Below are positions 3,804 through 11,197 of a stretch of 11,197 nt of DNA, piece by piece. The DNA comes from Acidobacteriota bacterium (GTDB lineage: Bacteria > Acidobacteriota > UBA4820 > DSQY01): positions 1-11,197 of the forward strand of contig JBBIKI010000023.1 of assembly GCA_037445535.1 (NCBI GenBank), in the 5' to 3' direction. Position 1 is the stretch's first letter; every line of letters begins with the position of its first letter. A program made the position numbers and the translations under genes. The notes beneath the pieces were generated by a model that made no database searches, was not told the origin of the DNA, and worked only from the letters and a program-made list of their open reading frames with translations.

Positions 3804-4871
3804 TCATGGCTCCCACTGGAAACCGCACCGCAGGCAGCGGTGCCAAGTCCGGGCGCCCAGGAAACGCTTGAACAGCAGGCCGAGGGCGCTCTCACCCGCG
3901 AAGGGAGGCGGCTCGCAAGGTTCGGTCTCCGGGCTCCCGCACTGGGAGCAGTGTATCGCCGCGCCGGCCACGGCGTCGCCGTCCCGGACGACGGGCAAAT
4001 CGGGAAGGGGAGCGCCCGCCGGGAATGCCTGGTCCCACACCTCGCCGCACACGGTGCAGAGGAACCGCACCGGACCGCCCTTTGCAACCAGCACGTCGTT
4101 CATGCTCAGGTGACGGGACAAACATCTCGGGCACTGCGGGCCTGCCGTGTCGCCGTCGTCCTCCGGGGAGGCCTCCGCGGGCGCCTCGGGAGGCGCTTCC
4201 ACGATCTCCTGCGGCACCGCCTCCAGCTCATGGCGCCGCGAGGGTTCCGCGCTCCCCCCGGCGGCGGCCGTTCCCGGTCCCTTGGCTTCCAGGGGCGATG
4301 GCCATCGGTGCTCGCAATTCTCGCACGCGCACCACGGGCCGTCCTCCGCCTGCTGCATGTCAAAGGCGTCCCGCGGCGGCGGATCCGCCGCCGTCACTCG
4401 GAACGATCCGCACGCCGGACAGGCCGCGGGAAGGATGGGGAAGGTGTCGCTCAGATAGACGGCCTCGGCCACGGGGGTCCGGCGACCGCAGTTCTGGCAA
4501 CGCAGCCACCAGCTTCCCAAAGGCGACTCGCTGGGCGTCACGGCGCAGAATTCCGTAGAATCGCACGATGTGCAGCGGACGTCCCCTCCGGCGTCCCCGC
4601 CGCTTTCCTCGTCCCGCCGGGCCAGCCTCGCCTCCGCCTCCGCGCGCCGTTCGCGGGGAACCTGGAGCCACACTCCCGCCGCCGCCTCGCCCAGAACCTC
4701 CGGAGGCGCCACGCGCCGGTCCAGGAGGGCGCAGGGCAGAGGAACGGCGTGCAAGAGAGCTTGGGTGTCCTCAGCCGGTTCCATTGATTCGAAGATTCTC
4801 AGCAGCTCCCACTGCTCCGGATCGTTCCCCGGAGCGGGCGATGCGGCCTTTTCTCCAACCACCGGCGCCAA
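3804..4871 (-). CDS. Multi-zinc-ribbon protein: four tandem MJ0042-like CxxC...CxxCG zinc-ribbon modules separated by acidic, Pro/Ala-rich linkers; ~355 aa; start uncertain (TTG 4871 vs ATG 4784)
   Basis: Four modules: (1) RCTSCDSTEF..x19..WWLRCQNCGRR; (2) CPACGSFRV..x22..WCACENCEHRW; (3) CPRCLSRHL..x19..FLCTVCGEVW; (4) HCSQCGSPE..x30..WHRCLRCGFQWEP*. Each has the aromatic residue before the second Cys pair and a Gly after it, as in MJ0042-type zinc fingers. The TTG at 4871 lies 4 nt after the TAG stop (4876-4878) of the flotillin gene, with GGAAAGG upstream, which fits translational coupling. The alternative ATG at 4784 has no clear SD. Confidence 0.6.
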   Translation of the reverse strand: MAPVVGEKAASPAPGNDPEQWELLRIFESMEPAEDTQALLHAVPLPCALLDRRVAPPEVLGEAAAGVWLQVPRERRAEAEARLARRDEESGGDAGGDVRCTSCDSTEFCAVTPSESPLGSWWLRCQNCGRRTPVAEAVYLSDTFPILPAACPACGSFRVTAADPPPRDAFDMQQAEDGPWCACENCEHRWPSPLEAKGPGTAAAGGSAEPSRRHELEAVPQEIVEAPPEAPAEASPEDDGDTAGPQCPRCLSRHLSMNDVLVAKGGPVRFLCTVCGEVWDQAFPAGAPLPDLPVVRDGDAVAGAAIHCSQCGSPETEPCEPPPFAGESALGLLFKRFLGARTWHRCLRCGFQWEP

Positions 4872-4875
4872 CCCG

Positions 4876-6960
4876 CTACACCTTTCCCGCCTGCTTGGGA
4901 GGTTCGCTCGCGGCGGCCCCGGACTGTCCCTTGGCGGTGATGAGGTTGGTGAGGTAGGCCGAGAGGAGCCCGCCGAGGTGGTCGCCGCCCTGCACGAGCA
5001 GGTCCGGCGTCACCTTCACGTTGCCCGAGGAGATCTGCTTGGCGATCTCGATGGCCGTCACGCCCTGCTGGCCCACGGCCTTGTTCTGCAGCTCGTAGGC
5101 CTTGGCCGTGGCCTCGCCGATGGCCAGGATCTTGGCGCCCTCTGCCTCGCCCCTGGCCTTGATGCCCGAGGCCTCGCCCACGGCGCGCAGGCGGATGCTC
5201 TCCCCCTCGCCCTCGGCGAAACGGATGGCCTTCTCCTTGTTCTGCTCGGCGATTTTCACCCCGATCTCCGCCTCCACCAGGTTCTTCTGCTGGTCCGCCT
5301 CGGCCCGCGTCTTCTCCGTGGCGATTCGCGTCTGCTCGGCCTTCTGCTGGTCCTGGTACATCGCCTGCTGCTGCTGGGCGATGATCTTCTTGGTCTGCGT
5401 GTCCATGAGGTCCTGCGGGAGGTTGATCTGGCAGATGAGGACCGAGACGCACTCCACGTGGTACTTCTCCAGCTCGGCCTTGGCCCGTTCCTCCGCCTTG
5501 CGCTGCTCCTCCTGGCGGTCCTGCATGAAGTTCATGGCGGAGGTGGAGGAGGCCTGGTTGCGGAAGCTCGAATCGATCATGGGATGGATCACGTGGAGGA
5601 TGAGGTTCTCGATGGAGCCGATCTTCGCCACCATGTAGGGCGCCTGGTCCGGCCTAACGCGGATGACCACCTTGACGGAGACGCTGATTTGGAACCCGTC
5701 TCGGGAGATGACTTTCAGCGGGTCGAAGCGTGTCTCCTTGCTGTCGTCCCAGTCGATGGTGATGTTGGTCGTGTCCACGATGTAGGCCATGAACGCCCGC
5801 AGGTTCAGATAGTAGAAGCCGGGCCCCGCCACCTCCTGCTGGATGCCCCGGAAGCCCTTCGGCACGACGTACCGCTCGATGCCCAGGTCCAGCCGGCCCT
5901 CCAGGGCCTCCCGCGCGCCTTCGCCGCCCTCCGTGCCCTCCCGCTTGGCGGCCTCCTCGATGAGCTGGCGCACCTGGGCGGGCTCCTCGCCCACGTTGGA
6001 GACCACCACGGCCACCTGGCCGCGCTCCACCACCGCCACGTTGTCCAGCTCCACTTTGAAGGCGAGCGGGTTGATGTAGTAGGTTCCCGGCTTGAGCACG
6101 TCGAACTGCGGTCCCCGCTGGCCGCCCGCGTGGAGGAACTTGGAGGCGTCCTGGAAATCGCTGTGGCCCGTCACCGGCTTGGCCACGTACTCCTTGTCGG
6201 GGAGGGGTTCGCCGTCCACGGCCGTCACCAGGCCCACGCTCTTGGCGGGGATGACGGTGGCGTCCATGATCTCCACCTTGAAGAGCGCCATGTTGATGCG
6301 GTAAGTGCCGGGCAGCAGGATGTCGATCTGCGGCCCCTTCTGGCCCCCCAGGTTGAGGAAGGCCTGGCCGTCCTCGAAATTGGCGTGGCCCTCCACGTGC
6401 TGGGCCAAAAGCCGGCCCGGCGGTATGGAGTGGCCGTCCATGGCGGTCACGAGGCCGATGCGCCCCTTGTCTACCACGATCGCCTTGGCCCGCGTCACCT
6501 TGAAGAGGACGGGGTTGATGCGGTACGTGCCGGGCGGCAGGATCTGGATCTGCGGGCCCTTCTCGCCCCCGCTCTTGAGGAACTGCTCGCCCTCCTGGAA
6601 GCTGTTGTGCCCCGGCACCACCTTTGCGAAGATCTTCCCTGGTTCCACAGGGTCGCCGTCGATGGATTCCAGGATGCCCACCTCGTCCTGGGCGATGGTC
6701 GTAAAGGGAACCTTGCTCACACGGTAAAGGAAGGGGACGAGCATGTGGAGTCCCGGCCCAAGCGTCCGCGCCTGGATGCCCACCTCGCCCGAGAGGGCCA
6801 CCACCCGGCCCTGGGCCATGTCCTTTCCGAAATACTTGCGCTCGATGACCGCGATCTGCGTCCCGCCCACGATGACCACGGCCTTCATCAGGAGAAGAAT
6901 GGCGGCCACACCCAGGACATAGGGCCCGTACAGCAAGGAAAACCTTACGACCTCCGACAT
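4876..6960 (-). CDS. Flotillin-family (YqiK-like) SPFH/band-7 membrane protein, ~694 aa, with an N-terminal module repeated in tandem
   Basis: ATG at 6960 with GGGAGGA 5 nt upstream (the track start at 7002 is a GTG without an SD). It has an N-terminal TM segment (FSLLYGPYVLGVAAILLLMKAVVIVGG), an SPFH core (ITIDWDDSKETRFDPLKVISRDGFQISVSVKVVIRVRPD..., compare the YqiK segment LITKDRMRVDVVVAFFVRVKPS) and a flotillin-type Glu/Ala/Gln-rich coiled-coil tail (QQQQAMYQDQQKAEQTRIATEKTRAEADQQKNLVEAEIGVKIAEQNKEKAIRFAEGEGESIRLRAVGEASGIKARGEAEGAKILAIGEATAKAYELQNKAVG). Stop TAG is at 4876-4878. Confidence 0.85.
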   Translation of the reverse strand: MSEVVRFSLLYGPYVLGVAAILLLMKAVVIVGGTQIAVIERKYFGKDMAQGRVVALSGEVGIQARTLGPGLHMLVPFLYRVSKVPFTTIAQDEVGILESIDGDPVEPGKIFAKVVPGHNSFQEGEQFLKSGGEKGPQIQILPPGTYRINPVLFKVTRAKAIVVDKGRIGLVTAMDGHSIPPGRLLAQHVEGHANFEDGQAFLNLGGQKGPQIDILLPGTYRINMALFKVEIMDATVIPAKSVGLVTAVDGEPLPDKEYVAKPVTGHSDFQDASKFLHAGGQRGPQFDVLKPGTYYINPLAFKVELDNVAVVERGQVAVVVSNVGEEPAQVRQLIEEAAKREGTEGGEGAREALEGRLDLGIERYVVPKGFRGIQQEVAGPGFYYLNLRAFMAYIVDTTNITIDWDDSKETRFDPLKVISRDGFQISVSVKVVIRVRPDQAPYMVAKIGSIENLILHVIHPMIDSSFRNQASSTSAMNFMQDRQEEQRKAEERAKAELEKYHVECVSVLICQINLPQDLMDTQTKKIIAQQQQAMYQDQQKAEQTRIATEKTRAEADQQKNLVEAEIGVKIAEQNKEKAIRFAEGEGESIRLRAVGEASGIKARGEAEGAKILAIGEATAKAYELQNKAVGQQGVTAIEIAKQISSGNVKVTPDLLVQGGDHLGGLLSAYLTNLITAKGQSGAAASEPPKQAGKV
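5773..6621 (-). repeat. Intragenic tandem repeat: four copies (three full of ~73-75 aa, ~222 nt each, plus a fourth fused to the SPFH core) of the flotillin N-terminal module
   Basis: Protein repeats: GHNSFQEGEQFLKSGGEKGPQIQILPPGTYRINPVLFKV / GHANFEDGQAFLNLGGQKGPQIDILLPGTYRINMALFKV / GHSDFQDASKFLHAGGQRGPQFDVLKPGTYYINPLAFKV / PKGFRGIQQEVAGPGFYYLNLRAFMAY. Each resembles the single-copy N-terminal segment of E. coli YqiK (AFVRTGLGGQKVVMSGGAIVMPIFHEIIPINMNTLKLEV). The periodicity is also visible at DNA level, e.g. 6092-6180, 6305-6420 and 6527-6630 on the plus strand. Confidence 0.6.
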
Positions 6961-7127
6961 GCAATCCTCCCAATTAAAACTGCACTCCGGCAGCCCGGCC
7001 ACGGGTCCTTTGAACCGGCGACGGGTGCGGCCCCTCGCGCGAACCCGTCCCCTTCGCCGTTCGGCCCGGCCTGCCAGTCCCTGTCACCATCATCCCCACG
7101 CATAGAGGATACCACCGGCGGCGCCCT

Positions 7128-7143
7128 CCGAACACTGGTTCGG
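7128..7143. promoter_or_regulatory. Perfect 6-4-6 palindrome CCGAAC-ACTG-GTTCGG in the divergent intergenic region between the flotillin operon and the small-protein/HD-GYP operon; candidate operator
   Basis: Seen directly in sequence. It lies ~48 nt upstream of the TTG at 7191 and ~170 nt upstream of the flotillin ATG on the other strand. No recognisable sigma-70 -35/-10 was found nearby. Confidence 0.2.
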
Positions 7144-7190
7144 AAGGCGTACACTGTCCACCGGCGCGAAGCCGGGGAGCCGAGGATCCC

Positions 7191-7376
7191 TTGACCTACA
7201 ATTTCGATCCCGGTCGCTGGTACGACAATCAGCGCGCGGCCCTTGAGGCACGGCTGGCGCGAGGCGAGCTGGGGCGGGATGCGTTCGAGGCGGCTCTAGA
7301 CGAATTGCAGCGGCGGCTGGAGGAGATGGAATCCCGGCTCGACGGCACCTTTCAGATTCCTCCGCCCAAGTCCTGA
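7191..7376 (+). CDS. Small (61 aa) hypothetical protein with a SHOCT-like motif; TTG start
   Basis: TTG at 7191 with GAGGA 4-8 nt upstream. Product MTYNFDPGRWYDNQRAALEARLARGELGRDAFEAALDELQRRLEEMESRLDGTFQIPPPKS. The segment LEARLARGELGRDAFEAALDEL resembles the SHOCT short C-terminal domain consensus (L.eL...G.it.eEFea.k..LL). It sits 70 nt upstream of, and on the same strand as, the HD-GYP gene. The overlapping antisense ORF 7090..7908 is judged spurious. Confidence 0.4.
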   Translation: MTYNFDPGRWYDNQRAALEARLARGELGRDAFEAALDELQRRLEEMESRLDGTFQIPPPKS

Positions 7377-8954: not shown

Positions 8955-9428
8955 TCAGGCCGTCAAGCCAGCCGCGAGAAGGACCTGACGCAGCCCCACC
9001 CCATCCGCTTCGGTGAAGGCCGAGAGTGAGCGGCTGTCCAAATCCAGGACGCCCCAGCAAGAGCCGTCCGGTTCCAGACACGGGACGACCACCTCGGAAA
9101 GGTTGGCGGGGTCGCAGACGATGTGGTCCTCGCCCAGGGCGTGGACGTCCTCCACCACGCAAGGCGCCCGTTCGCGCCAAGCCTTGCCGCAGACGCCGTG
9201 GAGCCCGATGGGTGAGCACGCGGGCTTGGGGCGGCAGACGCGCAGGAGCAGAGCGTTGCCCGCCTCTGCGATCTCGTAGAAGCCGAGCCAGTCCACCCCT
9301 CGGCCTTGAAGATGGCGCCACAGAATGTCGGTGACGGCCTTCATTCGAGCCATGCGGTCCGCGCCGGGAGACATGTCCGTGCGGGCGGCGCCTTGGCAGG
9401 CGCCGTAGTCGCGGAAGGGCCTCGTCAT
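8955..9428 (-). CDS. msrC: Free methionine-(R)-sulfoxide reductase-type GAF-domain protein (fRMsr / YebR-MsrC family), 157 aa
   Basis: GLHGVCGKAWRERAPCVVEDVHALGEDHIVCDPANLSEVVVP matches the fRMsr signature (G.CG.A.......V.DVH...GHIACD..S.SEIV.P), including the three conserved Cys. The ATG at 9428 overlaps the upstream gene's TGA stop as ATGA (9425-9428). The stop at 8955-8957 is only 5 nt from the convergent HD-GYP stop. Confidence 0.75.
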   Translation of the reverse strand: MTRPFRDYGACQGAARTDMSPGADRMARMKAVTDILWRHLQGRGVDWLGFYEIAEAGNALLLRVCRPKPACSPIGLHGVCGKAWRERAPCVVEDVHALGEDHIVCDPANLSEVVVPCLEPDGSCWGVLDLDSRSLSAFTEADGVGLRQVLLAAGLTA

Positions 9429-10756
9429 GGTTCGTCAGCTCCCCCCAAGCCCTCCTCCGCCTCGGCGGCGGAGGAGCCCGAAAGGCCTCCCTCCTCGGCG
9501 GTCCAGGGAATCTCCGCGCCGATGGGGCAATAACGCTCGGGATACTCCGGGGCAATGAGGGGCGTGGCGCTGGTGCGGGCCAGGAAGCCCGCCAGGCGGC
9601 CCAGGAGGACGTAGAGGCCCGGCTGGACGTAGCGCGGCGGCCCTCCCTGAAGGGCCACGGGTTCGGGGCGAAGCATCTCCTGGACCAGGAAGCCACCGTG
9701 GCTCGCGCCCTCTCGGACGGCCTCCTTCCACGTGTCCAAGGGGACGAGTGAGCCCACCACCACGCCCCGGCCTTCGTACCCTCGTACGGGTTTGAGAACG
9801 AACTCGCCCGGGTTTGAGAGGAGGAGGTCCTCCATGTCCCGGGTCTTCCCATCGTGGTCCACGGGACCGGGACGAAGCAGGCGCGTCCACGGGATGCACG
9901 AGCCAAGCTCGGAGGCCAGGGGCGGCGGTAGGATGCGCGCGAAGGCCGGGTCCGAAAGGACCACGAAGAGGGCTTTGCTCCACGCCGGGTCGGTCCTGAA
10001 GCTCCCCGCGAAGCAAGCCGCTCCTTCAAGGTAGCTATCCAGGAAAGGGCGGATTTCGCCCGCGCGCCGGAAGGCCTCCTCGCTCACCACGCGCCGGTAG
10101 ACCAGGTTCACCTCCCCGGAAGGCCCCATGAGCGAGCCCTCCGTGAGGCGAAGAGCCCTGGGGTCCTCCACCGTGGCGGGGTAGCCCGAAGCCGTGAAGA
10201 AGGCGGCCAAGGCCTCCTGCTCGGACCGGGTTCCCACCTCCGCCCAATCCACGATGGCGATGCGCGGCCGCTCGGTGCCGCGCTTGTCCCACTGCCGGAA
10301 GCAGTGCAGGAGAGTGTCCAGAAGGCGGGCGGTAAGAGGGTAGTCTTCCTGCGGCATGCCGTGGCGCTCGCGCCACAGCTTCGTGAGAGCCGCCGAGTAA
10401 TGCCACCCCGCCGTGCCGTCCGTGTTGTACTCCATGAAGCGCGGGCCCCTCGGGAAGAGAAAGGAATCCCAGCGGCCCAGCGGGATGAGGGGACGGTAGC
10501 CCGGGTCCTTCAGGATGAAAGACTCCTGGAAGGCGCCGTAGCCAAAGAGGCGGCGAAGCGGCGGGTCCCTCGGAAAGGCCTCCACCACCACCTCGGCGGC
10601 GGCGCTCGCCGCCTCCACCGCGCGCCGGATGTTATCCACCTGGCCTTCCTCGGGGAGGAAGGGATGGTCCGAGACGGGCAGGGCGAAACCCCGAAACGAG
10701 ATGCCCCTCCCGATCAGCTCGTTGTCGGTCCAGGGGTGCGGCGGCGGCAGGCTCAT
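9425..10756 (-). CDS. Glutathionylspermidine-synthase-family (YgiC/YjfC-like) ATP-grasp amide ligase, 443 aa
   Basis: ATG at 10756. MEYNTDGTAGWHYSAAL resembles the E. coli YgiC segment LENNADTPTSLYEAA. FVLKPVRGYEGRGVVVG resembles YgiC YVVKPIFSREGANVSII (ATP-grasp KP..G.EG.G strand). The rest has similar spacing. It is coupled to the fRMsr-like gene by an ATGA overlap. The antisense/alternate-frame ORFs 8521..10029 and 9435..10016 are judged spurious. Confidence 0.6.
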   Translation of the reverse strand: MSLPPPHPWTDNELIGRGISFRGFALPVSDHPFLPEEGQVDNIRRAVEAASAAAEVVVEAFPRDPPLRRLFGYGAFQESFILKDPGYRPLIPLGRWDSFLFPRGPRFMEYNTDGTAGWHYSAALTKLWRERHGMPQEDYPLTARLLDTLLHCFRQWDKRGTERPRIAIVDWAEVGTRSEQEALAAFFTASGYPATVEDPRALRLTEGSLMGPSGEVNLVYRRVVSEEAFRRAGEIRPFLDSYLEGAACFAGSFRTDPAWSKALFVVLSDPAFARILPPPLASELGSCIPWTRLLRPGPVDHDGKTRDMEDLLLSNPGEFVLKPVRGYEGRGVVVGSLVPLDTWKEAVREGASHGGFLVQEMLRPEPVALQGGPPRYVQPGLYVLLGRLAGFLARTSATPLIAPEYPERYCPIGAEIPWTAEEGGLSGSSAAEAEEGLGGADEP

Positions 10757-10836
10757 GAACGCTCCAGCAGAGCCCTATACCACGAAGGCCGGCCTGCCCG
10801 CAAGGCGGAAGCGATAATGCGGGACGAGAGACGAAC

Positions 10837-11084
10837 GGGGTCAGGTCTTGTAATCACACATGCCAGCGTCATGGGGTGGCCTTCGGCATGTTGCAGCTTC
10901 TGGTGGCGTGGTAATGCCATCAAACAGCAGGTTTGGCTGAACAGGCCGCGTAGGGCCAGGGTACGTCAAAGAATCTCAAGGGCCGCGCCCGGCCCTCGTG
11001 GTTCCGTAAGATGCCCCGCGCCCTCGCACGGCCGTGTAACCCAAGATTGGCATGGCCTAATGTATCATTACAAGACCTGACCCC
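10837..11084. mobile_element. ~248-bp element bounded by near-perfect terminal inverted repeats (MITE-like) or, alternatively, a structured RNA with a long closing helix
   Basis: Left 10837-10856 GGGGTCAGGTCTTGTAATCA; right 11065-11084 TCATTACAAGACCTGACCCC, whose reverse complement is GGGGTCAGGTCTTGTAATGA. That gives 18 contiguous identical bp, extendable to ~23/25. The interior (~52% GC) contains the internal hairpin GGGCCG-cgcc-CGGCCC (10980-10995) and no ORF with an RBS. It sits 80 bp upstream of the ATP-grasp gene start. Confidence 0.35.
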
Positions 11085-11122
11085 ATTGTTGTTTGTTCTT
11101 GGCGAATCAGCGGCGCTTCATC

Positions 11123-11178
11123 CTTTAACTTTCAACTCTCACCTCCCAACTCTCAACATTCAACTTTCACCTCCCGTC
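11123..11178. repeat. Tandem heptamer array, about 8 units of TYTCAAC (CTTTAAC TTTCAAC TCTCACC TCCCAAC TCTCAAC ATTCAAC TTTCACC TCCCGTC), at the window edge
   Basis: Seen directly. It also reads as a 17-bp direct repeat TTCAACTCTCACCTCCC (11131-11147) / TTCAACTTTCACCTCCC (11159-11175) with 28-bp (4 x 7) periodicity. The region is low-GC and pyrimidine-rich on the + strand. It is truncated by the window end. Confidence 0.4.
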
Positions 11179-11197
11179 CATCGCCTTCAGACGGACC

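Follow-up and report, generated by a model that had tools for sequence, protein, structure and literature searches.

The intergenic region between a DAHP synthase gene and an ATP-grasp-like gene, both encoded on the minus strand, contains a 248-bp element bounded by inverted repeats, which raises the question of what this element derives from. The original prediction for the 11,197-nt stretch of DNA analyzed here (the window) proposed a MITE or, alternatively, a structured RNA. The observation itself is confirmed, and the element belongs to a known kind, the TIRtrons with their TIRYT transposases. Judged from its sequence, it is very probably the decayed, non-autonomous relic of a TIRtron. The element and its surroundings are organized as follows:

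9425-10756, minus strand: ATP-grasp-like (glutathionylspermidine-synthase-like) gene, 443 aa, downstream of the element
10757-10830, minus strand: upstream region of the ATP-grasp-like gene, 74 nt, common to relatives; the homology to all five ends at 10829/10830
10837-10854, plus strand: left TIR core, GGGGTCAGGTCTTGTAAT, the 3'-end arm relative to the gene remnant; extended arm 10834-10861
11067-11084, minus strand: right TIR core, the same 18-mer, the 5'-end arm relative to the gene remnant; extended arm 11060-11087
Search sequence for further copies of the element (up to 2 mismatches): GGGGTCAGGTCTTG

Where the original prediction had near-perfect terminal repeats of 18-20 bp, complementarity is perfect over the 18-nt cores and 89% over the 28 nt of the extended arms, leaving spacers of 212 and 198 nt, respectively. 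Only two sites within the 11.2-kb window match the 18-mer with up to three mismatches; shuffled windows contain 0.01 matches on average, and none of 200 shuffles has two. The other compositional claims hold up as well. The interior, announced as ~210 bp of non-coding DNA, measures 212 nt and contains no ORF of 60 aa or more, with stops in all three minus-strand frames, and the GC content of the element (0.593) is lower than that of the window (0.658) and of the adjacent 1 kb (0.684). The flanks (...gacgaac / attgttg...) show no direct duplication, in agreement with the absence of a target-site duplication noted originally. The independent Logan assembly L001 possesses this element too and differs from the window at 1 position in 6451 nt.

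In other genomes, the 18-mer is the TIR of ~0.9-kb elements encoding a Y1/HUH "REP-associated tyrosine transposase" of about 278-290 aa. In L011, L093, L153, L159, and at least eight other loci, it is found (0-4 mismatches) on both sides of a Y1_Tnp / REP_Tyr_transpos ORF of 278-288 aa. The Pfam profile Y1_Tnp (PF01797) scores 47 bits with the L011 protein and 40 bits with that of L093 (cut-off 23), and the NCBIfam profile REP_Tyr_transpos scores 83.7 and 81.5 bits, respectively, passing its cut-off of 80 only just. HTH_38 is reported below cut-off in L011 (E 7.6e-4), and several homologues carry a precomputed PF13384 (HTH_23) or PF13936 (HTH_38) assignment. With E <= 1e-30 reached by 7993 of the 8000 candidates that were scored, the family is very large; its members are named 'REP element-mobilizing transposase RayT' or 'transposase' at source. 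Three TIRYT homologues from Nitrospira sp. records (P0127, P0159, and P0168) bear the source name 'addiction module toxin RelE', in all likelihood a wrong annotation for proteins of the Y1_Tnp type. L159, which carries the protein P0086, shares its metagenome of origin with a close relative of the window locus, and L160, which carries P0122, comes from an Acidobacteriota MAG. The whole 957-nt contig of L160 (GCA_049967655.1, JBMFSH010000125.1) is one TIRYT gene, and the motif is also present in L040 from the same MAG; this suggests that the assembly broke at a repeated element, and TIRtrons may be multi-copy in that MAG.

RAYT-like genes flanked by long TIRs have been named TIRYT, and the resulting units TIRtrons (Di Nocera, De Gregorio & Rocco 2013, BMC Genomics 14:522, PMC3733652; cited here and below for the sections drawn on). 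According to the same sections, many TIRs share the motif GGGGWSAS, TIR families occur as singles, dimers, and clusters, and an Acidobacteria group is singled out among TIRYT (PMC3733652). TIRYT correspond to subclass 2.1 of the TnpA-Y1 proteins, which are long and possess a C-terminal HTH / Bac_DnaA_C-like domain (Quentin et al. 2018, BMC Genomics 19:475, PMC6006769, likewise for the sections drawn on). Both window arms begin with GGGGTCAG, which fits the published consensus. The left arm continues with CAC-ACAT, as expected from the family extension NNN-RCAT(T), and the right arm, read on the minus strand, with GAT-ACATT, in line with L159 (GAC-ACATT) and with the family consensus. The bases just outside the window arms are C and T, fitting the family pattern in which G is rare at this position. 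The 18-mer is not self-complementary and is devoid of a GTAG/CGTC tag. When 30 TIRtron 5' regions are combined into a DNA profile, nhmmer finds both arms (E ~1e-8).

An exact scan of one genome per species (596 Gb) returned the 18-mer at at least 117 genome loci, as compared with ~17 expected from a uniform-composition estimate. The record titles of the matches listed cover Nitrospirota, Acidobacteriota, Gamma-, Beta-, and 'Delta'-proteobacteria, Actinomycetota, Bipolaricaulota, Neomarinimicrobiota, Thermodesulfovibrionia, and others. Among these listed matches, many of the loci, once oriented by the motif, have an ORF starting with MARPLRIEYPGAVYH ~30-45 nt further on, other copies are followed by the reverse complement of the motif after 10-90 nt, and a TIRYT-like tblastn match adjoins the motif at 27 of 118 loci. 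The inverted pairs among them fall into three size classes: 12 enclose 864-1064 nt with a ~280-aa gene, 7 enclose 121-600 nt, that of the window included, and 37 enclose at most 120 nt, forming short hairpins. A few solitary matches in Paenibacillus/Lysinibacillus DNA look like the chance matches to be expected. The 18-mer gave no match in viral contigs, and a blastn search of the element against plasmids gave none either.

Over 132 copies, the conserved end consists of the 18-mer followed by NNN and RCAT(T), with an outer base that is rarely G. Inspection of the flanks of these 132 copies for a target-site duplication returned no consensus beyond 'not G' at position -1. In 17 full-length elements, arm positions 1-14 are almost invariant and positions 15-18 variable; position 15 is polymorphic (T/C/A) and has changed on both arms in L159 (T15A) and in L141. 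A comparison of G·T wobbles between the arms of the same 17 elements, meant to infer the active strand, revealed no clear strand-specific bias. Across the loci L002-L118, the 18-nt end is identical to the letter in many phyla, while the transposases are only ~45-65% identical.

The ends of several copies exhibit further duplications. In 33 of 131 TIR copies (L028, L043, L047, L070, L071, L102, L105, L114, and others), the window not being among them, the start of the TIR (GGGGTC/GGGGTCA) recurs at least once, in part and in direct orientation, within the 45 nt that adjoin the element on the outside. A second copy of the immediate flank precedes each of these partial repeats, as in acatcattGGGGTCAcatcattGGGGTCAtcacatcattGGGGTCAGG… (chance ~1% by our own estimate). 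They look like iterated end-duplication or iteron-like arrays and might have to do with aborted replication from the nicked end or with the HTH/DnaA-like domain. Larger tandem units are found in L057 (2870-3160, minus strand) and L115 (4660-5050 and 3340-3665, minus strand); each comprises a short flank, a 5' TIR, the leader, and the first 64-91 TIRYT codons, and runs directly into another 5' TIR in the same orientation. These units, like the inverted short forms of L017 (aa 65), L126 (aa 69), and the window (aa ~77), are truncated at points that lie close together, shortly behind the HUH motif.

Between the two arms of the window element, three features can be assigned:

10859-11036, minus strand: putative remnant of a TIRYT (Y1/HUH tyrosine transposase) gene, codons ~16-77, frame broken
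10908-10916, minus strand: candidate HUH motif codon relic, CAT TAC CAC = H-Y-H, preceded by a 5-nt deletion and out of frame with the upstream ...CCLM
10977-10998, minus strand: GC-rich 9-bp hairpin followed by AGATTCTTTG, intrinsic-terminator-like, inside the gene remnant; not significant (shuffles 0.6 +/- 0.7)

The assignment of the remnant comes from local DNA alignments of nt 31-208 of the minus-strand interior (window 11036-10859) with intact TIRYT genes, using 500 dinucleotide-preserving shuffles and the reverse complement as controls. The alignment with the L159 gene scores 39.5 (shuffles 11.6 ± 1.7, z 16.8; reverse complement 11.5), that with L093 34.5 (shuffles 11.9 ± 1.8, z 12.6; reverse complement 15.5), and that with L160 33.5 (shuffles 11.8 ± 1.8, z 12.4; reverse complement 10.5), and in no case did a shuffle reach the observed score. 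The remnant and L159 are identical in 118 of 173 ungapped columns (68%), separated by about 8 gap events, mostly of 1-2 nt, and stop codons are present too. Of the first 30 nt after the 5' arm, only the arm-proximal GATACATT is kept (GACACATT in L159), and these 30 nt replace ~135 nt of leader and the first ~15 codons of L159. At the other end, the sequence passes from the ...SRGM codons straight into TGTG and the 3' arm, and the region beyond codon ~77, which includes the catalytic-Tyr helix and the putative C-terminal HTH, is absent. Comparable derivatives exist elsewhere, since the 265-bp element of L017 retains aa 1-65 and then the 3' arm, and in L126 aa 1-69 are joined to aa 198-271.

Searches at the protein level place the remnant in the same way. 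The tblastx and tblastn matches are collinear, aligning LEIL*RTLALRGLFSQTCCLM with LEILxRTVxLRxWxCHAYCLM of 34 family proteins. Out of 120 family proteins used in tblastn, 34 HSPs are placed consistently, with E values (>=0.008) that do not surpass the GC-rich noise in other parts of the window, and tblastx of the interior against L093 reports two collinear weak HSPs (E 0.024). The nhmmer match of the interior at the HUH region is weak (E 0.067), blastn of the interior against the first 118 loci returned noise only, and hmmsearch with a 12-protein TIRYT profile on the six-frame window returned no match in the element. A frameshift-aware profile alignment of the remnant yields z 1.4; its best path (ARPLRFFD-YPG against the N-terminus) was rejected as chance because it conflicts with the DNA alignment. 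The protein-level tests of the remnant are not significant, and therefore the gene ancestry rests on the DNA alignments to three relatives. By these alignments, the interior is a TIRYT pseudogene fragment, apparently left by two deletions, with the gene oriented on the minus strand.

The left arm of the element begins 80 nt upstream of the ATG (10756) of the 443-aa ORF, so that the position upstream of an ATP-grasp gene given in the original prediction stands, with the qualification that the circularly permuted ATP-grasp / glutathionylspermidine-synthase Pfam domains are found in remote homologues of this ORF, the ORF itself returning no Pfam match. On the other side, the C-terminus of the DAHP synthase ends at ~11187 and its gene runs past the window. 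Five relatives, defined as members of the same 90% protein cluster (L161, L119, L121, L162, and L165), are 88-92% identical to the window DNA over 4-5 kb, and the homology of all five stops at 10829/10830, 7 nt from the left arm. The motif, searched with up to 4 mismatches, is absent in 5 out of 5, and L120 is without it as well. Position 10829/10830 is a synteny breakpoint, with a left side common to the five relatives and three unrelated contexts on the right. The first consists of a DAHP synthase, repeats of 149-168 nt, a PAS histidine-kinase gene, and more repeats; the other two are formed by unrelated hypothetical genes and, in L161, by the contig end, 112 nt upstream of the ATP-grasp-like gene. 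In a more distant relative, the gap between the DAHP synthase and ATP-grasp-like genes is only 50 bp.

From this comparison of sequences, the element is lineage-specific and located exactly at the synteny breakpoint. Since the close relatives lack it, it is new to, or confined to, the DAHP-synthase / ATP-grasp intergenic region of this lineage. The far side is not conserved in the relatives, which precludes the reconstruction of a clean empty site, and the relatives' DNA is equally compatible with transposition into the region and with a rearrangement that brought the element along.

Other repeats of the region are distinct from the element. A 14-nt tandem repeat (11133-11175, 3.1 copies, consensus CAACTCTCACCTCC, GGGAGGTGAGAGTTG-like on the minus strand) lies just downstream of the DAHP-synthase stop and 48 nt from the right arm. 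It was considered as a part of the element and rejected: because its first unit is homologous to single-copy L119 sequence after the DAHP-synthase stop, it represents a local duplication outside the element. L119 (2993-3626 and 5681-5848), and also L120, contain another repeat family of 149-168 nt that includes GGGGAGGGCCACCGTGCCCTCCC, with 5 copies of 65-95% identity in L119, intergenic around the PAS histidine-kinase gene, which is located there between the DAHP synthase and the ATP-grasp-like gene. Neither these repeats nor the kinase gene are found in the window. Within the plus-strand ORF 4570-7194, whose counterpart in the relatives is called as a 694-aa Band_7 protein, the segment 6049-6613 forms an internal repeat with an offset of ~220 nt, the copies 6049-6391 and 6271-6613 appearing as secondary BLAST matches of ~67-69% identity through the relatives.

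These observations lead to the following model. A TIRtron is a small mobile element whose two TIRs of ~25 nt enclose the gene of a RAYT-like transposase of the TIRYT type, a Y1 enzyme with an HUH motif and a catalytic tyrosine. In the window copy, both repeats are intact and the gene would have been gutted by two internal deletions. The initial ~15 codons would have been lost in one of them together with the greater part of the 5' leader, and everything after codon ~77 in the other, the catalytic-tyrosine helix and the C-terminal helix-turn-helix included. Frameshifts and stops are present in the remaining 178 nt. With its transposase gene gutted and broken in frame, such an element could therefore not move alone. 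By analogy with the IS200/IS605 TnpA and the E. coli TnpA-REP, the TIRYT enzyme would recognize and cut the ends as single-stranded DNA, these two proteins being described, in the sections drawn on, as HUH/Y1 nucleases acting by single-strand 'peel and paste' (PMC6006769). The same analogy would explain the lack of a target-site duplication, because the ends would be cut as single-stranded DNA by an HUH/Y1 enzyme; with such a parent the lack is to be expected and raises no difficulty. It also implies that a TIRYT encoded elsewhere in the genome could mobilize the short form in trans, because both of its ends are perfect. The arms could pair into a stem of ~21-28 bp, either as DNA or in a read-through transcript of the DAHP synthase, and this pairing is most likely a passive by-product.

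The relic reading competes with the idea that the element is an active MITE, a short form that a TIRYT transposase from its own genome currently mobilizes in trans and that is present in several copies, which we regard as unlikely yet as the foremost of the alternatives. The two perfect 18-nt arms that match the pan-family consensus down to the NNN-RCAT extension are in keeping with it, and so are the short and intermediate TIR pairs common in other genomes, the lineage-specific presence at this site, and the intact related TIRtron L159 in the same metagenome as a close relative of the locus. The counts argue the other way, as a 21-mer of the interior has no match in the metagenome collection, and no similar interior was found among the 157 fetched loci. 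An extended-TIR scan of metagenomes, which yielded 37 loci, returned no closer relative of the interior either. Moreover, the arms together offer lesions a target of 36 nt, and with the modest number of lesions that the 212-nt interior has received, their perfection is not improbable. Although TIRYT elements are abundant, few papers using the terms TIRYT or TIRtron were found, and no experiment in which a TIRYT is active, cutting or moving its TIRs, was found in the sections of this literature drawn on (PMC3733652, PMC6006769). The MITE proposed originally survives in part: the element is small, bounded by TIRs, free of ORFs of 60 aa or more, internally deleted from a transposase element with the same 18-mer ends, and absent from the same site in close relatives. 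However, its parent is a Y1/HUH TIRtron with its TIRYT and not a DDE transposon, its interior is a recognizable pseudogene fragment instead of anonymous DNA, and no second short form was found in the metagenome collection.

A broader version of the same idea, which we likewise regard as unlikely, would make the window copy a snapshot of a continuum that runs from TIRtrons of ~0.9 kb through deleted remnants of 0.13-0.45 kb to TIR-loop-TIR hairpins of 46-125 bp. A horizontally spreading Y1-transposon family, its 18-nt end unchanged in every letter across many phyla, would thereby seed REP/REPIN-like hairpins in unrelated genomes, and the relic with its perfect ends would still be a TIRYT substrate in trans. 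If this reading is true, the element would be active as a MITE of the single-strand 'peel-and-paste' kind and could serve to demonstrate TIRYT activity for the first time.

Decay of the TIRtron is also to be weighed against its exaptation as a cis-element of the host, that is, a terminator, an mRNA-stabilizing hairpin, or an insulator between the DAHP-synthase and ATP-grasp-like genes. Host roles of this kind have been described for some REP sequences. The element does separate co-oriented genes that are just 50 bp apart in the distant relative, the downstream gene retains its own conserved 74-nt upstream block, and the RNA fold predicted for the minus strand is very stable (-132 kcal/mol, z -8). 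The interior also contains the 9-bp GC hairpin with its T-rich tail, absent from intact TIRYT genes, where the homologous stretch is not palindromic; this hairpin (10977-10998) is the core of the predicted interior fold. However, the z of the whole fold is driven by the arms, the interior alone reaching -2.85, a single terminator-like site corresponds to the shuffle level, and the relatives manage with no such element. Service to the host as a terminator or stabilizer is unsupported, and we rate this explanation as improbable.

The structured non-coding RNA gene of ~250 nt, with the arms as its closing helix, fares worse than exaptation and is very improbable. Predicted folds are strong on both strands (z -6.95 and -8.01), but an Rfam search of the whole window returned no match at gathering threshold, and at E <=10 over 10700-11197 only an irrelevant eukaryotic lncRNA appeared (14 bits). 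In other genomes, the same arms are transposon ends that enclose protein genes or unrelated loops of 10-90 nt, and the interior here reads as decayed transposase coding sequence. No homologue of the whole short element that could serve for covariation was found in the metagenome 21-mer and extended-TIR scans. The RNA alternative of the original prediction is therefore not supported.

Least probable of all is a chance inverted repeat or a pair of solo TIRs around unrelated DNA (a REPIN-like dimer), for although TIR copies often occur as dimers with arbitrary loops, 0.01 matches are expected per window, and the spacer aligns with a TIRYT gene whose orientation and order agree with the position of the 5' arm. 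A retron, in which the repeats would be a1/a2, was considered and rejected, as the arms were recognized as those of a TIRtron and the vicinity encodes no reverse transcriptase.

For annotation, the preferred reading as a decayed TIRtron means that the 248 bp should be labeled as a TIRtron (TIRYT) pseudogene relic, not as an RNA gene or a regulatory element, and position 10830 marked as a synteny breakpoint. Intact, truncated, and minimal forms that share one invariant 18-mer would be ready substrates for biochemical tests, and the catalogue of forms bears on the origin of REP-like hairpins from transposon ends, although neither point will surprise specialists. Of more interest than the element itself are the 18-mer shared across phyla, the size continuum, and the tandem partial end duplications.

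Among known systems, the IS200/IS605 elements (IS608, ISDra2) resemble the ancestor of the window element in the Y1_Tnp fold (PF01797) of its transposase and in the absence of a target duplication. In contrast, TIRYT proteins are about twice as long and appear to possess an extra HTH domain, and IS200/IS605 ends are formed by different subterminal hairpins and not by long TIRs. With MITEs derived from DDE transposons, the element shares its small size, its lack of an ORF of 60 aa or more, its TIR boundaries, and its probable origin by internal deletion of an autonomous element. It differs from them in the absence of a target-site duplication and in the parent enzyme, an HUH/Y1 nuclease.

REPtrons, REPs, and REPINs are said to be mobilized by RAYTs, reportedly in the work of Nunvar in 2010, Bertels and Rainey in 2011, and Ton-Hoang in 2012. 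The TIRYT family resembles these systems, as its enzyme passes the NCBIfam RAYT model, if only just, inverted repeats stand on both sides of its gene, two-arm hairpins are dispersed through genomes as its short derivatives, and a single-strand DNA mechanism without target duplication is presumed; the window itself contains no such gene. However, the 18-mer is identical across many phyla, whereas REP sequences are lineage-specific and vertically inherited. The 212-nt, gene-derived spacer of the window element is also far above the REPIN spacer length. A REP unit is described, in the sections drawn on, as short, imperfectly palindromic, and marked at its 5' end by a conserved tetranucleotide, GTAG or CGTC (PMC3733652), and the window arm is neither palindromic nor tagged in this way.

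The closest match is therefore with the TIRtrons themselves. The window copy differs from them in being devoid of an intact transposase, codons ~16-77 only being left and out of frame, and internally deleted TIRtrons that keep a gene remnant were not found in the sections of the TIRYT/TIRtron literature drawn on (PMC3733652, PMC6006769). Its arms nevertheless fit the GGGGWSAS outer end of the consensus given in the same sections of these papers, and copies of its 18-mer likewise occur as singles, dimers, and clusters. The genes next to it point to Acidobacteriota, a phylum with a TIRYT group of its own. In the relatives of the element, the same repeats flank a RAYT-like Y1 transposase with an HUH motif, a catalytic Tyr, and a probable C-terminal HTH, and the sequence between the window TIRs is homologous to this TIRYT gene by DNA alignment (z 12.4-16.8).
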